A stretch of DNA of 9,093 nt, taken from IMG/VR virus record IMGVR_UViG_2537561928_000018; one strand, 5' to 3'. A model generated the notes under the pieces. It saw only the letters and a list, made by a program, of their open reading frames with translations, made no database searches and was not told where the DNA came from. This DNA comes from a virus (Duplodnaviria; Heunggongvirae; Uroviricota; Caudoviricetes). The stretch's first letter is position 1. Each line of letters opens with the position of its first letter. The position numbers and the translations under genes are program-made. This document shows positions 1-9,093 of the stretch, in pieces.

Positions 1-540
1 AAAAATACTTAACAGAACTACCAAGAAGAGAGGGAACGATAAGACCGGAGGTAGTGACCTTGTTAGACAGGCTGTTTCAAAGCTCTTAAGAATCTGTTAA
101 GTAAGGTCATGTGAACAATCTTACCATTTTGTCAATGCTTTTGTCTTTGACCTAAATCAATAAAATGTATCGTTTGATGTGCTTTTAAACAAAGTAGCTA
201 AAAAATCTTTTTAGAGGGGCGCTTCGCTTGGGGTCACTATGTTCTTTCTCTCCCGTTAAGAGGGGAGTTACAGGGCATTTCAAAGCCCTGATAAGGTAAG
301 CCCGATGATAACAGAAACAGAGGGCAAAACCACTTATCAACACTGTGAACGAATAACGTAAAGGGCTGGTTAAGAAAGTCGGTTTAGGGATTGGTAGATG
401 ATTCGGATGAAGCATCCTCATAACAATACCAATTAGAAGGGAGCTTCCCTCTCTGGGGTTATCGCTCTTCTCCCGCTTAGTGGATAGCTAAGAAGGCTTG
501 AAGTCATCTGTGAAGGTGCTGAACAGCTACTATATTGGGT

Positions 541-583
541 GATTGCAACTCGTTGAAAAATAAGCATTTTTAGAAATCACTGT
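541..583 (+). repeat. 43-bp imperfect direct repeat, copy 1 (partner at 638-680)
   Basis: Seen in sequence: gattgcaactcgttgaaaaataagcatttttagaaatcactgt versus aattacaacttattgaaaaataagaacttttagaaattactgt; about 36 of 43 positions identical by eye, same orientation, 97-bp period. Confidence 0.6.
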
Positions 584-637
584 TAAGGTTACAGAGTCAA
601 CTGTGAAGAGACTTGTCAGTTCTCTATATATATGGCT

Positions 638-680
638 AATTACAACTTATTGAAAAATAAGAACTTTTAGAAATTACTGT
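638..680 (+). repeat. 43-bp imperfect direct repeat, copy 2
   Basis: See copy 1; shared core ttgaaaaataag...ttttagaaat.actgt. Confidence 0.6.
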
Positions 681-761
681 CAGAGAGGTGAATACTTGAT
701 AGACACAGCTTTCTGGTTCTGTCAAGCTATTTTTTAATAGATAGCACAAAATGCTAAAGAT

Positions 762-790
762 ACCCCTGTACGAGATGGTATAGGGGTTTT
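762..790. terminator. Hairpin with T-run, possible intrinsic terminator
   Basis: acccctgtac / gtataggggt forms a roughly 10-bp stem (one G-T pair) with 6-nt loop gagatg, followed by tttt on the + strand; sits about 10 bp 3' of the stop of the minus-strand ORF 800-1012, so it could act on either strand. Not folded computationally. Confidence 0.35.
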
Positions 791-799
791 GAAGGGGGT

Positions 800-1012
800 T
801 TAACGGGGGTCCGTGTGGTCATTATCCTTAAGGTCAAGCGTCCATGTACGACCGAACAGTTTAAAGACAACAAGCACTCTGACGAGGACGTAGCGGAGTA
901 ACAGACCTGCAATCAGCCCGATACCTCCACCAGCCCATACATCAGGTGACCCCAGTTCAGGAGGGAGATTTACCATTAAATTTCCTGTGTGCAATGCAAT
1001 ACCATGTGACAT
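800..1012 (-). CDS. Hypothetical small protein with one hydrophobic segment (70 aa; alternative start at internal Met, codon 977-979, gives 58 aa)
   Basis: ORF track; hydrophobic stretch AGGGIGLIAGLLLRYVLVRVLVV; no clear SD before ATG at 1012, weak AGGA before the internal ATG; region looks GC-richer than its surroundings. Could be spurious. Confidence 0.3.
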   Translation of the reverse strand: MSHGIALHTGNLMVNLPPELGSPDVWAGGGIGLIAGLLLRYVLVRVLVVFKLFGRTWTLDLKDNDHTDPR

Positions 1013-1140
1013 ACATAGTTGATTCGGTTAGTTGGGCTTGTACCAACCCCTATCGAATAAACCTCATAGCCACGCCTTTATATTTTACTCTCCCCATAGA
1101 ACCATTATACCACAGATGTTAATAAAATGTTAAAAAATAC

Positions 1141-1179
1141 TTGACATTAGTCTTTGAAAATGCTAGTATTGTATATATA
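1141..1179 (+). promoter_or_regulatory. Sigma70-type promoter P1: TTGACA, 17-bp spacer, extended -10 TGcTAGTAT, then TGTATATATA box
   Basis: Seen in sequence: ttgaca at 1141-1146, tgc-tagtat at 1161-1169, tgtatatata at 1170-1179; located about 50 bp upstream of the 1221 start codon. Confidence 0.55.
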
Positions 1180-1220
1180 AGTTAACAGAATAATAACATC
1201 TTATGAGGGTCGGAACATGA

Positions 1221-2272: not shown

Positions 2273-2556
2273 AACCTTGGCATGAAGATGTTAGACGATA
2301 TTTTACAGAACACCTTATCTATGATGAATCCAGTGATTCCCTGTGCTGGTCTGATGGAGAGTCAGTCACGATAAATACCGACGACTACGGCAACAAAACA
2401 TTTAATATAGGCCGATATACTTTCTACGTGAAATATGTTGTCTGGTTCCTTTATCATGGCTATCAATCCAACAAGCAAATTATCCATCGAAATGGTAACA
2501 GAGCCGATACCAGACCAAAAAATCTTATGCAAGTCCGAGACTTTAAGAGAAATTAG
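2269..2556 (+). CDS. Minimal HNH-family endonuclease, 95 aa
   Basis: ORF track; SD GGTGAGGAGG 4 nt upstream; C-terminal motif IIHRNGNRADTRPKNLMQV matches the H-x-x-G-N...N-L signature of phage-type HNH endonucleases, preceded by YVKYVVWFLYHG; recalled family pattern, not searched. Confidence 0.7.
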   Translation: MKPWHEDVRRYFTEHLIYDESSDSLCWSDGESVTINTDDYGNKTFNIGRYTFYVKYVVWFLYHGYQSNKQIIHRNGNRADTRPKNLMQVRDFKRN

Positions 2557-2711
2557 AAAAATAGCTTCTCAGGCGCTCTCAATCGCATTCTAACGCAAAA
2601 AACTATCTTATTTTAGGGTGGGTAATACCACTGTACAGGCTACCCCTGAAAAAGACTGTTTAGCTCGTTACAGAGCGATTGAGGAGGTCTGGTAAAAAGG
2701 AGATTTTAAAA

Positions 2712-3035
2712 ATGAACAATTACCCATTACAGATTTTCGTTGATAACGACACCGCTATGATGATTCAGGCTTTCACTGATGTAGGTGTTAGCATTGACTT
2801 TGACAGGCTGTTAAGGCTAATGGCTGATAACTCAGAAGTAATTGAAGACTTTATTCAGTCGGTGGAGTTTAACGAGCCTCGAATGATGCTACCAATTATA
2901 GACAGCAACATGAAAAGATTGGTTATCGAGCAAACGAACAAATACAGTATTAGCCCTGAAAGATATCTCAAGGCAGCTATAGCAATTTTGTACGCTGACA
3001 ATATTTTGGTGACGGATTCGAAGGTGGTGCATTAA
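2712..3035 (+). CDS. Hypothetical acidic protein, 107 aa from the ATG (ORF track begins at TTG 2679)
   Basis: ATG at 2712 has SD AAGGAG 9 nt upstream, preferred over the TTG at 2679 which overlaps a GAGGAGG; D/E-rich; no family recognised. Confidence 0.65.
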   Translation: MNNYPLQIFVDNDTAMMIQAFTDVGVSIDFDRLLRLMADNSEVIEDFIQSVEFNEPRMMLPIIDSNMKRLVIEQTNKYSISPERYLKAAIAILYADNILVTDSKVVH

Positions 3036-3100
3036 TGGAATTGGTGATTATCTGTTTTGTATTGATTGGTATGATTGCAGGTGCATCTATTAAAGTATAA
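3035..3100 (+). CDS. 21-aa hydrophobic micropeptide MELVIICFVLIGMIAGASIKV (not in ORF track)
   Basis: Seen in sequence: ATG overlaps upstream TAA (TAATG); strong SD AAGGTGG 5 nt upstream inside the end of the preceding gene; one predicted transmembrane-length hydrophobic stretch; stop TAA at 3098-3100. Confidence 0.4.
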   Translation: MELVIICFVLIGMIAGASIKV

Positions 3101-3125
3101 ATGTTACCAATCTGTTAAAAAGCTG

Positions 3126-3164
3126 TTGACAAATAACCTTGAGCATGACATAATTGTATATATA
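3126..3164 (+). promoter_or_regulatory. Sigma70-type promoter P2: TTGACA, 17-bp spacer, extended -10 TGaCATAAT, then TGTATATATA box
   Basis: Seen in sequence: ttgaca 3126-3131, tga-cataat 3146-3154, tgtatatata 3155-3164; same architecture as P1. Confidence 0.55.
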
Positions 3165-3243
3165 GGGAGAGCAATTCTCCTTGAATTAAAATATTAATCG
3201 TCTCTACATCGATGATAACTATATTCTGAGTTGGAAAGGTGCA

Positions 3244-3420
3244 ATGCTTTTCGTCATGGCCTTTCAGGTTAGTCTGAGAGGCTATCTCAAAAAGTGCTTA
3301 ATCATTCATTCATTGAACCCTTTACAGCTTTGCCCTAATCATGAGTTAGGGCGTTTCTTTAAGAGTTTTCAAACAGAACTTTTAAAGAAAGTTTTTCCTG
3401 AAACTTCGTTAACGTTATAA
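3244..3420 (+). CDS. Candidate small ORF, 58 aa, basic (alternatively an untranslated leader or small RNA)
   Basis: ATG at 3244 with stop TAA at 3418-3420; lies between P2 and a hairpin at 3432-3473; SD weak (AAAGGTG only 2 nt from the ATG); just below the ORF-track length cutoff. Coding status uncertain. Confidence 0.25.
   Translation: MLFVMAFQVSLRGYLKKCLIIHSLNPLQLCPNHELGRFFKSFQTELLKKVFPETSLTL
3332..3360 (+). terminator. Terminator-like hairpin gccctaa / ttagggc with tail gtttcttt
   Basis: 7-bp perfect stem, 7-nt loop, T-rich tail; located inside the candidate 58-aa ORF or leader, so it may be an attenuator rather than a gene-end terminator. Confidence 0.35.
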
Positions 3421-3431
3421 AGCAAACCTCC

Positions 3432-3480
3432 AAAGCCCTTCACAGATGAGGATGAACCTATGTTTAGGGCTTTTCTTTAT
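3432..3480 (+). terminator. Terminator-like hairpin aaagccct / agggcttt with tail tctttat
   Basis: 8-bp stem but a large 26-nt loop, followed by a T-rich run; begins 12 nt after the stop of the candidate small ORF. Confidence 0.3.
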
Positions 3481-3573
3481 AGAGCATCTTTAATAAATCG
3501 TTAAGTCATCTTCTAAGTGTATTGGCGTTGAAGGTGCTCTATTAAGAAATAATCACACTTAGAGGAAATTATA

Positions 3574-4284
3574 ATGACAAATGATATTTACATTAATGGC
3601 AGAAAGGTTGATAGCTTCGGTGACTGGTCGCCACAGACTGAACATCCAGCTATCACTATTCAGCGTAAAGAACACGATGAAAGAATTAAGCTTGAGCAAT
3701 CGTTAAAGATGTCACCAAAGGTAATTTCCTTTGTGTCTCCTGAGCCTCAAGAAATGCCAGATATCTGCAAAAGTGAAGCACTATTTAATCTTGAGCGTGA
3801 ATATTACCCACAGTTAAAAGCACAGCGTATTAAACTTGATGACGCTTACAGCAAAGTTACCCTGATGCAATCAGCTATTGAGCCGTCAGAATTTGAGATT
3901 CAGGATGAATTGTCACAGAAACCATTTGTCTATTACCAATACGAAGATAATGATGGTTTTGGTACTTTTCCTGAGAATATCCCAGACGTGATTAATAATC
4001 TTCCTGACGGATATCGAATTGTGAAGATGGTTAAAGCTTCAAGGGGTGCTGGTCAATTTATTTATATGACTAATAAGAGCGATGAAGAACTCTGTGAACT
4101 TGCTAGACAGAACATCTTGGCATCACGTAACAAGCAACTTGAAAATGTTAAGTTGTATCTCTCAAGAGAGCTTCAGGCTATGAAAGAACTTGTTAGTGAA
4201 TATGAATCACAGAAGAAGATTGCTATGCAAGCCGATATTGAGCAGTTAATGAAGATTTCTCAGAAATATGCAAAGGCTATTTGA
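3574..4284 (+). CDS. Hypothetical protein, 236 aa
   Basis: ORF track; SD AGAGGAAA 5 nt upstream of ATG; predicted helical, charged C-terminal third; no family recognised. Confidence 0.75.
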   Translation: MTNDIYINGRKVDSFGDWSPQTEHPAITIQRKEHDERIKLEQSLKMSPKVISFVSPEPQEMPDICKSEALFNLEREYYPQLKAQRIKLDDAYSKVTLMQSAIEPSEFEIQDELSQKPFVYYQYEDNDGFGTFPENIPDVINNLPDGYRIVKMVKASRGAGQFIYMTNKSDEELCELARQNILASRNKQLENVKLYLSRELQAMKELVSEYESQKKIAMQADIEQLMKISQKYAKAI

Positions 4285-4855: not shown

Positions 4856-4897
4856 GGGAGAGATTATCGAGTGACATCGGTAGTTTCTCCCTTTTTT
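4856..4897 (+). terminator. Hairpin gggaga / tctccc followed by tttttt, putative intrinsic terminator
   Basis: 6-8 bp stem, roughly 20-nt loop with internal complementarity, then a T6 run; lies between the 67-aa gene and the tape-measure-like gene. Confidence 0.45.
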
Positions 4898-7194: not shown

Positions 7195-7968
7195 ATGATT
7201 TACTCTAACCAAATCAAATATAGTGGCAAAGATGGCATCTATTTCCACTTAAGAGATAATGTAGATGCCTTCTTAACCTTATCAGCAACTGAAAACATGG
7301 AATTTGACAGCCCTATGCAGGTAACTACACAGAACATGCAATCAGGGCAAACCGTCACAGATAATGTGCAAAGAGCACCCAGAACAATCACTATTAGTGG
7401 TGTCGTTGTAGTTGGCTATGAAGGAAGTTTATTATTAACTCGTCAGGGTCAATTAGTAGAAAACTTCATTGACACTCTCGAAAGCTGGCGTGACCAGAAG
7501 CAAATTATTTCGGTCATCTGTAAAGACGGTATCAAGATTGATGACTCCATTATCACGAGTTTTAAAGCCTCTAAAGATGTTGGAATTTCAAACGGCTTAA
7601 GAATCCAATTAACTTTTCAGGAAATTAACTTTAAAGCTATTGTGGGTCAGACTGATATCTCGGCTGCGACCGGAAGGACTTCTACCACAAGTGATGGTGG
7701 TGCTACCAGTAAAAAGAATACTGGTAATACTACAACAAGTCTAGGTAATGGTATGTTGCTGTGTCAGGAGCTATATAATCGCTCTACGAGTGAACTTTCT
7801 AATGAGCAACTTCAAGCCCGTATCAATTGTGGTAGAAGTGTCAAAGTTGAGAATGGAAAAAGCACCTTCTCAGATGCCGCTAATGAGCAAGCTTCAAAGG
7901 CGCTTAATAATGCTGGTACAGGTAATGTTTTGAAGAGGCTTTCTGTGAATCCTAACAAGCGCTACTGA
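7195..7968 (+). CDS. Hypothetical protein, 258 aa from the ATG (ORF track begins at TTG 7174); possibly tail-associated by position only
   Basis: ATG at 7195 has SD AAGGAG 6 nt upstream, and the TTG at 7174 would overlap it; contains an S/T/G-rich linker ([28 protein letters not shown]) between two regions; no family recognised. Confidence 0.7.
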
Positions 7969-7982
7969 CGATAGAATCTCAA

Positions 7983-8678
7983 CTATATGATAACCTCATC
8001 AACATCTATTAAACCCCTCTCAGTGACTTCAGAAAGCGACTGTATAGCCTCTGTAACGTCCTCTGAGGGGTTTTCTGTTATTGGTAAGGTGATTGCTCTA
8101 CCGTTGTGAAAAGTTACTTTACAGCGACGTTTAGCAGTATTTAAAACGACCTCTTTAACAGCACTTTTGATTATCAGTTGTGCTTCAATCCTTCCCGCCT
8201 TTGTAGTCAAGTCACAATCAGACAAAGAGCCTGTATCGATAGACTTAAGCCGCTGTGTCTCCTTCTCGATATCCGCATCAACCTGTGATAGCTCACCTTT
8301 TAACTGTTTTAGTTTGCTGGTAATAGCGGACAAGTCTTCAATTTCAAGTGATAGCTGTACCAGCTTTTCAATATTGTTTGAGATGTGTTCACGGTGTAGC
8401 TTCAGTGTGTCTATGGTATTCGTCGTATCGCTATCAAATCGGTCAAGACGAGATAGCAGGGTAAGTAATGTACCATCGGTTTGCTTACGTGAAAGTCCTT
8501 TAGCACTACAACGGTTTTCATTACGAAGGGGACAACGATAAATCCCGTTTCTTGTATTGCTAAAGCCTGTGATAATCAGAGCATGACCACATTCAGAACA
8601 ACGGATAACACCTTTAAAGAGATTCACACTCAATGGTTTATCTGAAGCAGGTTTTCGACCGTAACGAGAATGTGATAG
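7983..8678 (-). pseudogene. Large serine recombinase, 3' fragment (zinc-ribbon plus coiled-coil region); 5' catalytic part displaced by the IS3 insertion
   Basis: Minus-strand frame is open from the IS3 boundary with no credible start (track start at 8633 is a TTG); Cys pattern RCSECGH...YRCPLRNENRC followed by a long heptad-like coiled coil is typical of the C-terminal region of large serine integrases; about 230 aa is too short for a complete enzyme. Confidence 0.7.
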
Positions 8679-8743
8679 TGATCTTACCCAGCAATAGTGG
8701 ACACGCGGCTAAGTGAGTAAACTCTCAGTCAGAGGTGACTCAC

Positions 8744-9043
8744 ATGACAAAAACAGTATCAACCAGTAAAAAACCCCGTAAACAGCATTCGCCTGAATTT
8801 CGCAGTGAAGCCCTGAAGCTTGCTGAACGCATCGGTGTTACTGCCGCAGCCCGTGAACTCAGCCTGTATGAATCACAACTCTACAACTGGCGCAGTAAAC
8901 AGCAAAATCAGCAGACGTCTTCTGAACGTGAACTGGAGATGTCTACCGAGATTGCACGTCTCAAACGCCAGCTGGCAGAACGGGATGAAGAGCTGGCTAT
9001 CCTCCAAAAGGCCGCGACATACTTCGCGAAGCGCCTGAAATGA
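8744..9043 (+). CDS. insE: IS3 OrfA (transposase N-terminal / regulatory protein), 99 aa from the ATG
   Basis: Translation MTKTVSTSKKPRKQHSPEFRSEALKLAERIGVTAAARELSLYESQLYNWRSKQQ... is the IS3 OrfA sequence as I recall it; the track start at 8735 is an upstream GTG. Confidence 0.85.
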   Translation: MTKTVSTSKKPRKQHSPEFRSEALKLAERIGVTAAARELSLYESQLYNWRSKQQNQQTSSERELEMSTEIARLKRQLAERDEELAILQKAATYFAKRLK

Positions 9044-9093
9044 AGTATGTCTTTATTGAAAAACATCAGGCTGAGTTCAGCATCAAAGCAATG
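9040..9093 (+). CDS. insF: IS3 OrfB (transposase catalytic part), 5' end only
   Basis: ATG overlaps the insE stop (ATGA); translation MKYVFIEKHQAEFSIKAM matches the IS3 OrfB N-terminus as I recall it; truncated by the window edge. Confidence 0.8.
   Translation, partial: MKYVFIEKHQAEFSIKAM

Follow-up and report, generated by a model that had tools for sequence, protein, structure and literature searches.

We analysed a stretch of DNA of 9,093 nucleotides (nt), held in IMG/VR as virus record IMGVR_UViG_2537561928_000018; the whole of this stretch is referred to below as the window. The window is E. coli DNA and covers most of a phage-like integrative island of ~11.5 kb, which corresponds to positions 10086-21576 of the E. 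coli locus L001. The subject of this study is a micro-open reading frame (micro-ORF) of the island, located at the end of a tightly packed operon, directly behind a gene for a protein of 107 amino acids (aa). The micro-ORF almost certainly represents a well-supported new family of small membrane proteins, which had previously not been annotated.

The micro-ORF and its coupling to the upstream gene

The product of the micro-ORF is the peptide MELVIICFVLIGMIAGASIKV. Both this peptide and the coordinates of the frame (Table 1) agree exactly with those given in an earlier sequence-only reading of the window, which had claimed a hydrophobic ORF of 21 aa at this place. The same reading had described a start codon overlapping the preceding stop codon, and this overlap is indeed present (TAATG, within the letters GAAGGTGGTGCATTAATGGAATTG at 3020-3043). 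Such overlaps support termination-reinitiation, and the arrangement would physically couple initiation at the micro-ORF to the termination of translation of the 107-aa gene. The proposed Shine-Dalgarno (SD) sequence AAGGTGG was found as well. Its spacing had been given as 5 nt, which holds when the distance is counted from the overlapping GGTG (3026-3029); the complete motif ends 7 nt before the ATG, so that the discrepancy is a matter of register.

The peptide has a grand average of hydropathy (GRAVY) of 2.21, with a value of 2.81 in its best 17-residue window. It is the most hydrophobic product of the 30 ATG-started ORFs of 18-30 aa that are present in the six frames of the window, the runner-up having a GRAVY of 1.28. 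A single transmembrane (TM) helix is predicted, composed of the uncharged segment L3-I19, which is flanked by E2 on the N-terminal and K20 on the C-terminal side. The peptide therefore has the features of a single-pass membrane protein, i.e. a hydrophobic stretch long enough to cross the bilayer and charges confined to the ends. It also contains a GxxxG motif (G12xxxG16).

Six tightly packed cistrons are located on the + strand, and encode proteins of 185, 92, 71, 95 (HNH) and 107 aa, followed by the micropeptide. Since no + strand terminator-like site between genes was found ahead of 3331-3353, we place the micro-ORF at the end of an operon of six cistrons, the position that had been proposed for it. 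We infer from a consensus scan that this operon is transcribed from the candidate promoter at 1141-1169.

Conservation and coding status of the reading frame

Related loci were collected from E. coli genomes (L001-L014 and L109-L111), a one-genome-per-species set (E. albertii and an Escherichia sp.), IMG/VR (11 loci) and gut metagenomes (80 loci, 78 of them assessable). With the window included, 110 loci were assessable, and 107 of these formed the subset used for codon and length counts. Diverged relatives of the region 2650-3600 (75-91% nucleotide identity) are present in 478 of the 5426 complete E. coli genomes (about 9%).

The ATG lies in an identical TAATG overlap in all 110 assessable loci, and the micro-ORF is intact in 109 of them, with a length of 21, 22 or 25 aa. 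The subset contains 77 frames of 25 aa, 28 of 21 aa and one of 22 aa; three more 25-aa micro-ORFs are carried by the divergent islands L109-L111. The position of the stop codon is fixed, and the codon itself is variable (TGA in 64, TAA in 34 and TAG in 9 loci of the subset). The SD sequence exists in two versions, which follow the C-terminus of the upstream protein: 59 loci have the AAGGTGG type, and most of the others GAGGG or GAGGA, with GAGGT in L109-L111. Interruption of the frame in homologs had been named beforehand as a possible refutation of the ORF. A single disrupted allele was found among the 110 (L081, metagenome contig OLHG01000032.1), in which a 14-nt deletion between short GCTTGG repeats leads to a frameshifted product of 19 aa, MGLIIAWLICWLLGGQYGK. 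This disruption could be either a true loss or an assembly error.

The micro-ORF occurs in at least 56 distinct nucleotide alleles, which fall into three classes, and its nucleotide conservation is the lowest in the surrounding region (identity to the window of 52-61%, vs 82-99% in the flanks). Recent common ancestry therefore does not account for the intact frame. The upstream protein of L109-L111 shares only 23% identity with that of the window; the micro-ORF behind it retains the TAATG overlap and an SD sequence, and encodes a peptide identical in 22 of 25 residues to other 25-aa alleles. This means that the micropeptide is more conserved than the gene to which it is coupled.

The pattern of substitutions was examined by the ratio of nonsynonymous to synonymous polymorphism (pN/pS), the values of which are to be read as contrasts between frames and not as calibrated probabilities. 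In the 25-aa class (46 distinct alleles) pN/pS was 0.28 in frame, and 1.16 and 1.47 in the other two sense frames; in the 21-aa class (8 alleles) the respective values were 0.45, 1.77 and 1.74. The annotated 107-aa upstream gene gave 0.33 in the same loci, and the constraint on the micro-ORF is thus as strong as that on its annotated neighbour. Comparison of the first 19 distinct 25-aa alleles shows purely synonymous variation in 8 of the 24 internal codons, including those of both GxxxG glycines and Cys16. In a permutation analysis of these 19 alleles, the 36 variable columns were re-placed at random on columns of the same consensus base (5000 runs). The observed number of extra amino-acid states was 14, against 34.0 +/- 3.3 in the permuted sets; none of the 5000 permutations had a value as low, and only 5.8% were free of a new stop codon. 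Translation, which the sequence-only reading had called plausible, is strongly supported by this purifying selection, seen in the micro-ORF frame only, and by the retention of the ATG, the SD sequence and the stop position across the allele classes.

These data bear directly on the possibility that the micro-ORF is a chance open frame in an intergenic spacer, kept because the DNA is recent or because of some other constraint. Short ORFs are common in AT-rich DNA, the flanking promoter is highly conserved, and hydrophobic coding leaves antisense frames open too, all of which could speak for a chance origin. However, frame, start and stop have been retained in the very region that is locally the least conserved at the nucleotide level, stop-free permutations were rare and none combined with so little amino-acid change, and the same architecture is held by three allele classes. 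We regard this explanation as effectively refuted and hardly conceivable. As judged from the substitution pattern, there is little doubt that the micro-ORF is a real protein-coding gene and not a chance ORF.

The expectation that such a gene would be missed by standard annotation was borne out: none of the 17 RefSeq loci inspected has a coding sequence (CDS) annotated at the place of the micro-ORF, and eight peptide variants were absent, by exact-sequence look-up, from a collection of about 15 billion proteins. Comparison of the 21-aa peptide with the NCBIfam and Pfam hidden Markov models (HMMs), Ibs, Ldr, ShoB, TisB and others, yielded no family at E up to 10. For the 25-aa class the sole HMM signal was a sub-threshold one to PetG (E = 0.14-0.2; 12 bits vs cut-offs of 23.7 and 60). 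PADLOC gave no match for the micropeptide. Among 50,697 phage records, no match was obtained by a blastn-distant search with 2500-3700, nor by tblastn with the 107-aa protein or the 25-aa peptide (E up to 10). The micropeptide strings were not found in a search of ~8 million papers and preprints, and no description of the island or the peptide was found in the literature. Proteins below about 30 aa are systematically missed by annotation, and the micro-ORF is an instance of this.

Allele classes and putative role at the membrane

The window class consists of MELVIICFVLIGMIAGASIKV and its variants I6L, I11V, I19V, V21A and E2V. The majority class follows the pattern M[GTSA]LI[IV][AL]WT[LA]LGL[FL][VC]GC, continued by WVGNTVNKN, WMGNTVNKN, IINNAVNKN or LIANAANRN. 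The hybrid class is a single allele, MELVIMWTLLGIAIAFAISMEK, in which the N-terminus of the window class is combined with the WTLLG core of the majority class; by joining both, it argues that the allele classes are homologous. An uncharged hydrophobic core of about 17 residues is common to all classes. The GxxxG motif is present in 109 of the 110 loci (the hybrid carries GxxxA), and 63 loci have a complete glycine zipper (GxxxGxxxG). Lysine and arginine are confined to the last six residues in 106 of the 107 loci of the subset, and are absent from the first five residues in all 110. The shared core, the GxxxG motif and the C-terminal basic residue point to a membrane helix with a packing face, and not to a stalling peptide or a signal sequence. 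On this evidence, the micro-ORF product is very likely a single-pass membrane helix.

The resemblance to very small membrane toxins and regulatory peptides, which had been noted from the sequence alone, holds with respect to the single hydrophobic helix, the GxxxG motif and the size, which falls within the 19-27-aa class of IbsC and YohP. The E. coli inner-membrane proteins YohP (27 aa) and YobI (21 aa) belong to the same size class and likewise consist of one helix with tails of a few residues. There is no sequence relationship to them (no NCBIfam or Pfam match). Moreover, YohP and YobI are stress-induced monocistrons of the core genome, whereas the micro-ORF is located on a mobile island as the coupled last cistron of a six-gene operon and, unlike these two, has a GxxxG motif and three allele classes. 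YobI is annotated only 12 kb from the island insertion site, which indicates that genes of this kind receive a name from PGAP only if there is a model for them. KdpF, CydX and PetG are also operon-encoded one-helix peptides coupled to partner genes. They are, however, encoded beside their membrane complex, while the micro-ORF operon encodes no other membrane protein. The PetG match of the 25-aa class lies far below threshold, and PetG itself is a one-helix subunit.

Another system to be compared is that of the PLE satellites of Vibrio cholerae, which are islands of ~18 kb that parasitise phages. Their protein LidI is the product of a formerly unannotated TM ORF, found by synteny, and alters the lysis timing of the helper; two size classes of LidI are known (66 and 121 aa), and PLE uses a large serine recombinase (PMC7182436). 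The micro-ORF is similarly an unannotated TM ORF with size classes, on an island with a large serine recombinase. LidI is, however, 3-6 times longer, has no sequence similarity to the micropeptide, and functions with a different host and helper. The effect on lysis belongs to LidI; for the micropeptide it is putative, as is the satellite status of the island.

Our preferred interpretation is that the micro-ORF is probably a genuine gene for a single-helix inner-membrane micropeptide, the last cistron of the island's early operon, and that its product acts at the membrane. Ribosomes that finish the 107-aa gene would re-initiate at the overlapping ATG. The completed peptide of 21-25 residues is shorter than the ribosomal exit tunnel and too small to be targeted during translation, and its insertion would therefore be post-translational, as has been demonstrated for the 27-aa YohP (PMC7549839). 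By the positive-inside rule alone, the N-terminus would be placed outside and the C-terminus inside. GxxxG motifs mediate helix-helix packing, and the glycine face of the micropeptide may pack against another TM helix, either of its own copies or of a host or helper-phage membrane protein. The behaviour of the inner membrane might in this way be altered while the early operon is on, which could influence how a phage infection ends, be it in the timing of lysis or by keeping incoming DNA out.

A role at the membrane in the conflict between phage, host and island, exerted through a partner helix, is our guess by analogy, and it is favoured because of the LidI precedent. Our confidence in any specific proposed function is low, and we do not think that the micropeptide is a stand-alone type I toxin. 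A more far-reaching version would make the island a PLE-like satellite or defence element against Felix O1-type virulent phages, with the 21-25-aa GxxxG peptide as its membrane effector. The effector could then collapse the lysis control of the helper or block the tape-measure-mediated DNA entry of a superinfecting phage, and the three allele classes might be matched to different phage or host membrane targets. We consider this version quite unlikely; if true, the micropeptide would be the smallest known phage-conflict effector protein. Should phage infection be affected in any manner, the micropeptide would offer a tractable minimal model of the action of a single TM helix; if it is not, the micropeptide would add one more to the increasing number of small membrane proteins known from bacteria. 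In either case the natural variants (the 21-aa form, the 25-aa forms with and without a glycine zipper, and the hybrid) constitute ready-made mutants.

Several points weigh against this interpretation and should be borne in mind. Each functional step (translation, membrane location and phenotype) is inferred. No membrane partner is encoded beside the micro-ORF, and the coupled 107-aa protein is soluble-looking. Because many loci stem from related strains, and because the alleles are mosaics produced by recombination, fewer independent events underlie the data than the pairwise pN/pS values and the locus counts would suggest. One antisense frame has a lowish pN/pS (0.40), a value to be expected because antisense third positions coincide with sense third positions (wobble-mirror effect). 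Finally, the satellite status of the island is putative, and the recombinase of the window's copy is truncated by IS3.

The main rival of a partner-helix role is that the micropeptide may be a self-assembling, membrane-depolarising toxin or abortive-infection effector, which would form a glycine-zipper oligomer and a leaky pore, and arrest or kill the cell upon induction of the operon. It would be functionally like IbsC, TisB or DinQ, with control exerted by operon transcription and translation and not by antisense RNA. As a peptide of 21 aa with a 17-residue core, the micropeptide is small (<60 aa), hydrophobic and of a membrane-targeted type, like the type I toxins; with IbsC (19 aa) and with further hydrophobic toxins known from prophages it shares a tiny, almost wholly hydrophobic helix and the location on a mobile element (PMC12648545). 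The location of the micro-ORF on a mobile element and the glycine zipper in 63 of the 110 loci are in keeping with such a function, and glycine-zipper membrane toxins are documented (TelE and EsxX). However, the full zipper is absent from the 21-aa class of the window and from the IINNA subclass, and GxxxG alone is universal. No antitoxin-like element was detected: there is no antisense or divergent small RNA (sRNA) partner, and no minus-strand promoter-like site scoring at least 9/12 lies within several hundred nt of the ORF (the nearest is at 2637-2610), although weak or non-sigma-70 promoters could escape a consensus scan. The adjacent + strand RNA (3161-3362) was rejected as a trans-antitoxin, since its duplex with the micro-ORF mRNA, calculated with RNAduplex, was no better than shuffled controls (57% of the shuffles were as good). 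An independent toxin transcript is not apparent either. The SD sequence lies inside the upstream gene, the TAATG overlap ties expression to that gene, unlike in type I toxins, and the promoter candidate is that of the operon (1141-1169). A coupled terminal cistron has neither its own promoter nor a structured 5' untranslated region (UTR), and the Ibs, Ldr, ShoB and TisB HMMs gave no match. On balance, we find the toxin explanation unlikely.

Two further explanations concern the peptide itself. The micro-ORF might be a cis-regulatory upstream ORF (uORF), in which the act of translating 3035-3100 is what matters (for Rho exclusion, RNA unfolding or the promoter located 26 nt downstream) and the peptide is functionless. 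Its end is indeed only 26 nt from a highly conserved promoter/operator block, and in length the peptide comes close to TnaC (24 aa). Nevertheless, selection acts on the amino-acid sequence (pN/pS of 0.28; 0/5000 permutations), and what the non-alignable classes share is a membrane-helix character (hydrophobic core, GxxxG, C-terminal lysine) and not a stalling motif. Furthermore, no terminator or regulated gene follows right after the stop codon, and a ribosome at this codon would not reach the -35 box at 3126, which makes a uORF very unlikely. The 25-aa class could alternatively encode a tiny lipopeptide precursor, with LFVG-C16 as a lipobox and a 10-residue acylated product, CWVGNTVNKN, released by cleavage. 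A lipobox-like motif ([LVIFM][ASTVI][GAS]C) is present in 78 of the 110 loci, and Cys16 varies only synonymously among the first 19 type-B alleles. Against this, the n-region has no lysine or arginine in any of the 110 loci, and the sole basic residue is C-terminal, which implies the opposite topology. The 21-aa class of the window has VIIC in place of a lipobox, and the hybrid allele has no cysteine. A lipopeptide is thus highly improbable for the 25-aa class, and a lipoprotein precursor was rejected for the family as a whole, since the lipobox-like motif is limited to the 25-aa class and a basic n-region is lacking.

Several other identities were tried and rejected. An RNA structure behind the conservation was considered, since pairing is possible between the conserved GTTACCAATC block and the 3' portion of the ORF (inverted repeat I2); however, the allele classes do not pair in the same register, and the pairing is disrupted by synonymous GGT-to-GGC changes. 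An antisense RNA or gene was dismissed because the consensus scan showed no promoter for it, because neither the start nor the length of the antisense ORFs is constant from locus to locus (none is present in the window), and because the value of 0.40 is a wobble mirror. A -1 frameshift fusion with the 107-aa protein does not fit: in most loci the frame of the micro-ORF stays open for no more than ~11-13 codons in the upstream direction, and the last 15 codons contain no canonical X XXY YYZ heptamer. Longer entries in the databases result from N-terminal over-extension and not from fusion. A holin or lysis cassette was also rejected: the micro-ORF lies at the end of an early/regulatory operon, and known holins are far larger than 21 aa. 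There is no Pfam, NCBIfam or RefSeq call of an endolysin in the island. The tail protein at 7195-7968 also matches PHROGs 1517 and 380, which are labelled endolysin, more weakly than its own family, and Pfam identifies it as Dit-like.

The neighbouring genes and the island

The remaining features of the locus are listed in Table 1 together with those of the micro-ORF.

Table 1. Features of the window and the island around the micro-ORF
Feature	Position	Strand	Remarks
AP2-family regulator gene	leftmost in island	-	
Interval without annotated genes	after AP2-family gene; promoter-like sites at 1104-1169		~1.5 kb; divergent promoter-like sites
Divergent promoter-like site	1133-1104	-	11/12; consensus scan
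Candidate operon promoter	1141-1169	+	TTGACA-17-TAGTAT with TG, 10/12; consensus scan
Upstream gene, 107 aa	2712-3035	+	acidic, soluble-looking protein; WP_001678977.1, 'hypothetical'; RefSeq start 2712
Shine-Dalgarno AAGGTGG	3021-3027	+	inside last codons of 107-aa gene
TAATG stop/start overlap	3033-3037	+	last base of TAA of 107-aa gene (3033-3035) is the A of micro-ORF ATG
Micro-ORF	3035-3100	+	ATG 3035-3037, 21 sense codons, TAA 3098-3100
Gap without annotation	directly after micro-ORF		470 nt
Three direct TGTTA/TGTTG repeats	3100-3129	+	11 nt apart; ATGTTAC-CAAT-CTGTTAA-AAAG-CTGTTGA, running into -35 box
Near-consensus sigma-70 promoter	3126-3154	+	TTGACA-17-CATAAT, TG, 11/12; 26 nt after micro-ORF stop
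Structured transcript	3161-3362	+	about 200 nt (~190-260 nt); ends at intrinsic terminator 3331-3353
Genes of 236, 102 and 67 aa	after gap		
236-aa protein	3574-4284	+	homologs named 'transposase' (PGAP) in many genomes, 'hypothetical' in others
Strong intrinsic terminator	4856-4891	+	15-bp stem and T-run; between 67-aa gene and tape measure gene
Tape measure protein	after 67-aa gene		PF20155, phrog_4036
Dit-like tail protein	7195-7968	+	PF21821; phrog_3721 at 1.8e-137
Truncated recombinase	7983-8633	-	C-terminal 216 codons left; cut at ~8680 by IS3
Large serine recombinase	right end of island	-	507 aa in full

The 107-aa protein belongs to a group with 3460 Escherichia/Shigella clusters, and had no match in Pfam, PHROG, NCBIfam, PADLOC or among PDB sequences. 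Its AlphaFold model is of low confidence (pLDDT 63) and has a beta-alpha-alpha x2 topology; the fold matches are weak (best E = 0.025, to F-plasmid relaxosome chains; DndE). The model gives a hint that the protein is possibly a tandem ribbon-helix-helix (RHH) DNA binder.

The promoter at 3126-3154 is 95-99% conserved, i.e. above the neighbouring genes, and is present in 103 of 111 loci; it belongs to the next transcription unit and not to the micro-ORF. The 11-nt phasing of the TGTTA repeats that run into it points to an operator for a regulator that binds DNA; either the RHH-like 107-aa protein or the 92-aa protein of the upstream operon may be this regulator. The structured transcript that follows is composed of a 5' hairpin (3165-3181), invariant blocks (GAAAGGTGCAATGCTTTTCG, 3234-3253), a central hairpin and the terminator. 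RNAalifold analysis of 35 distinct sequences revealed 39 consensus pairs, 6 of them with compensatory changes, and an Rfam scan of the whole window gave no match. The place of this RNA between the regulatory and the tail-gene operons recalls the terminated leader RNAs of phage late promoters, and it may be a terminated leader or a regulatory RNA of the tail-gene operon. Its terminator (3331-3353) is probably also the 3' end of the micro-ORF operon. A 58-aa ORF in this region (3244-3420, + strand), preceded by the SD-like AAGGTG, was judged noncoding, since its homologs have 2-nt indels right after the ATG and its frame crosses the terminator hairpin.

The island, the tape measure and Dit-like tail genes of which are of Felix O1 type, splits yecE (DUF72) between yecN and yecD; other copies are located elsewhere, e.g. 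between yciI and tonB in L002. The 236-aa protein of the window was not matched by any Pfam, NCBIfam, PHROG or PADLOC model, and the name 'transposase' therefore looks unsupported. Because of the terminator at 4856-4891, the tail genes would need read-through or a promoter of their own. No capsid, terminase or lysis genes were found in the island, which could be a satellite of, or a defence element against, Felix O1-like phages.

A 544-nt part of the Dit-like gene (7210-7753) has counterparts of 94-95% identity in more than 200 Felix O1-like phages of Escherichia and Salmonella, and megablast of the rest of the window gave no match to any phage. It seems that a segment of a tail gene was exchanged recently between the island and virulent phages. 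At the right end, an IS3 copy (8680-9093, with an InsE-like orfA frame starting at 8735) replaces the catalytic N-terminal part of the recombinase, and it is probable that the window's copy can no longer leave the chromosome by excision. At the opposite end, the first ~1.2 kb of the window (1-1220) is without a convincing gene, and in the related islands L003 and L004 the matching interval contains a gene, or a remnant, of an N6-adenine DNA methyltransferase.

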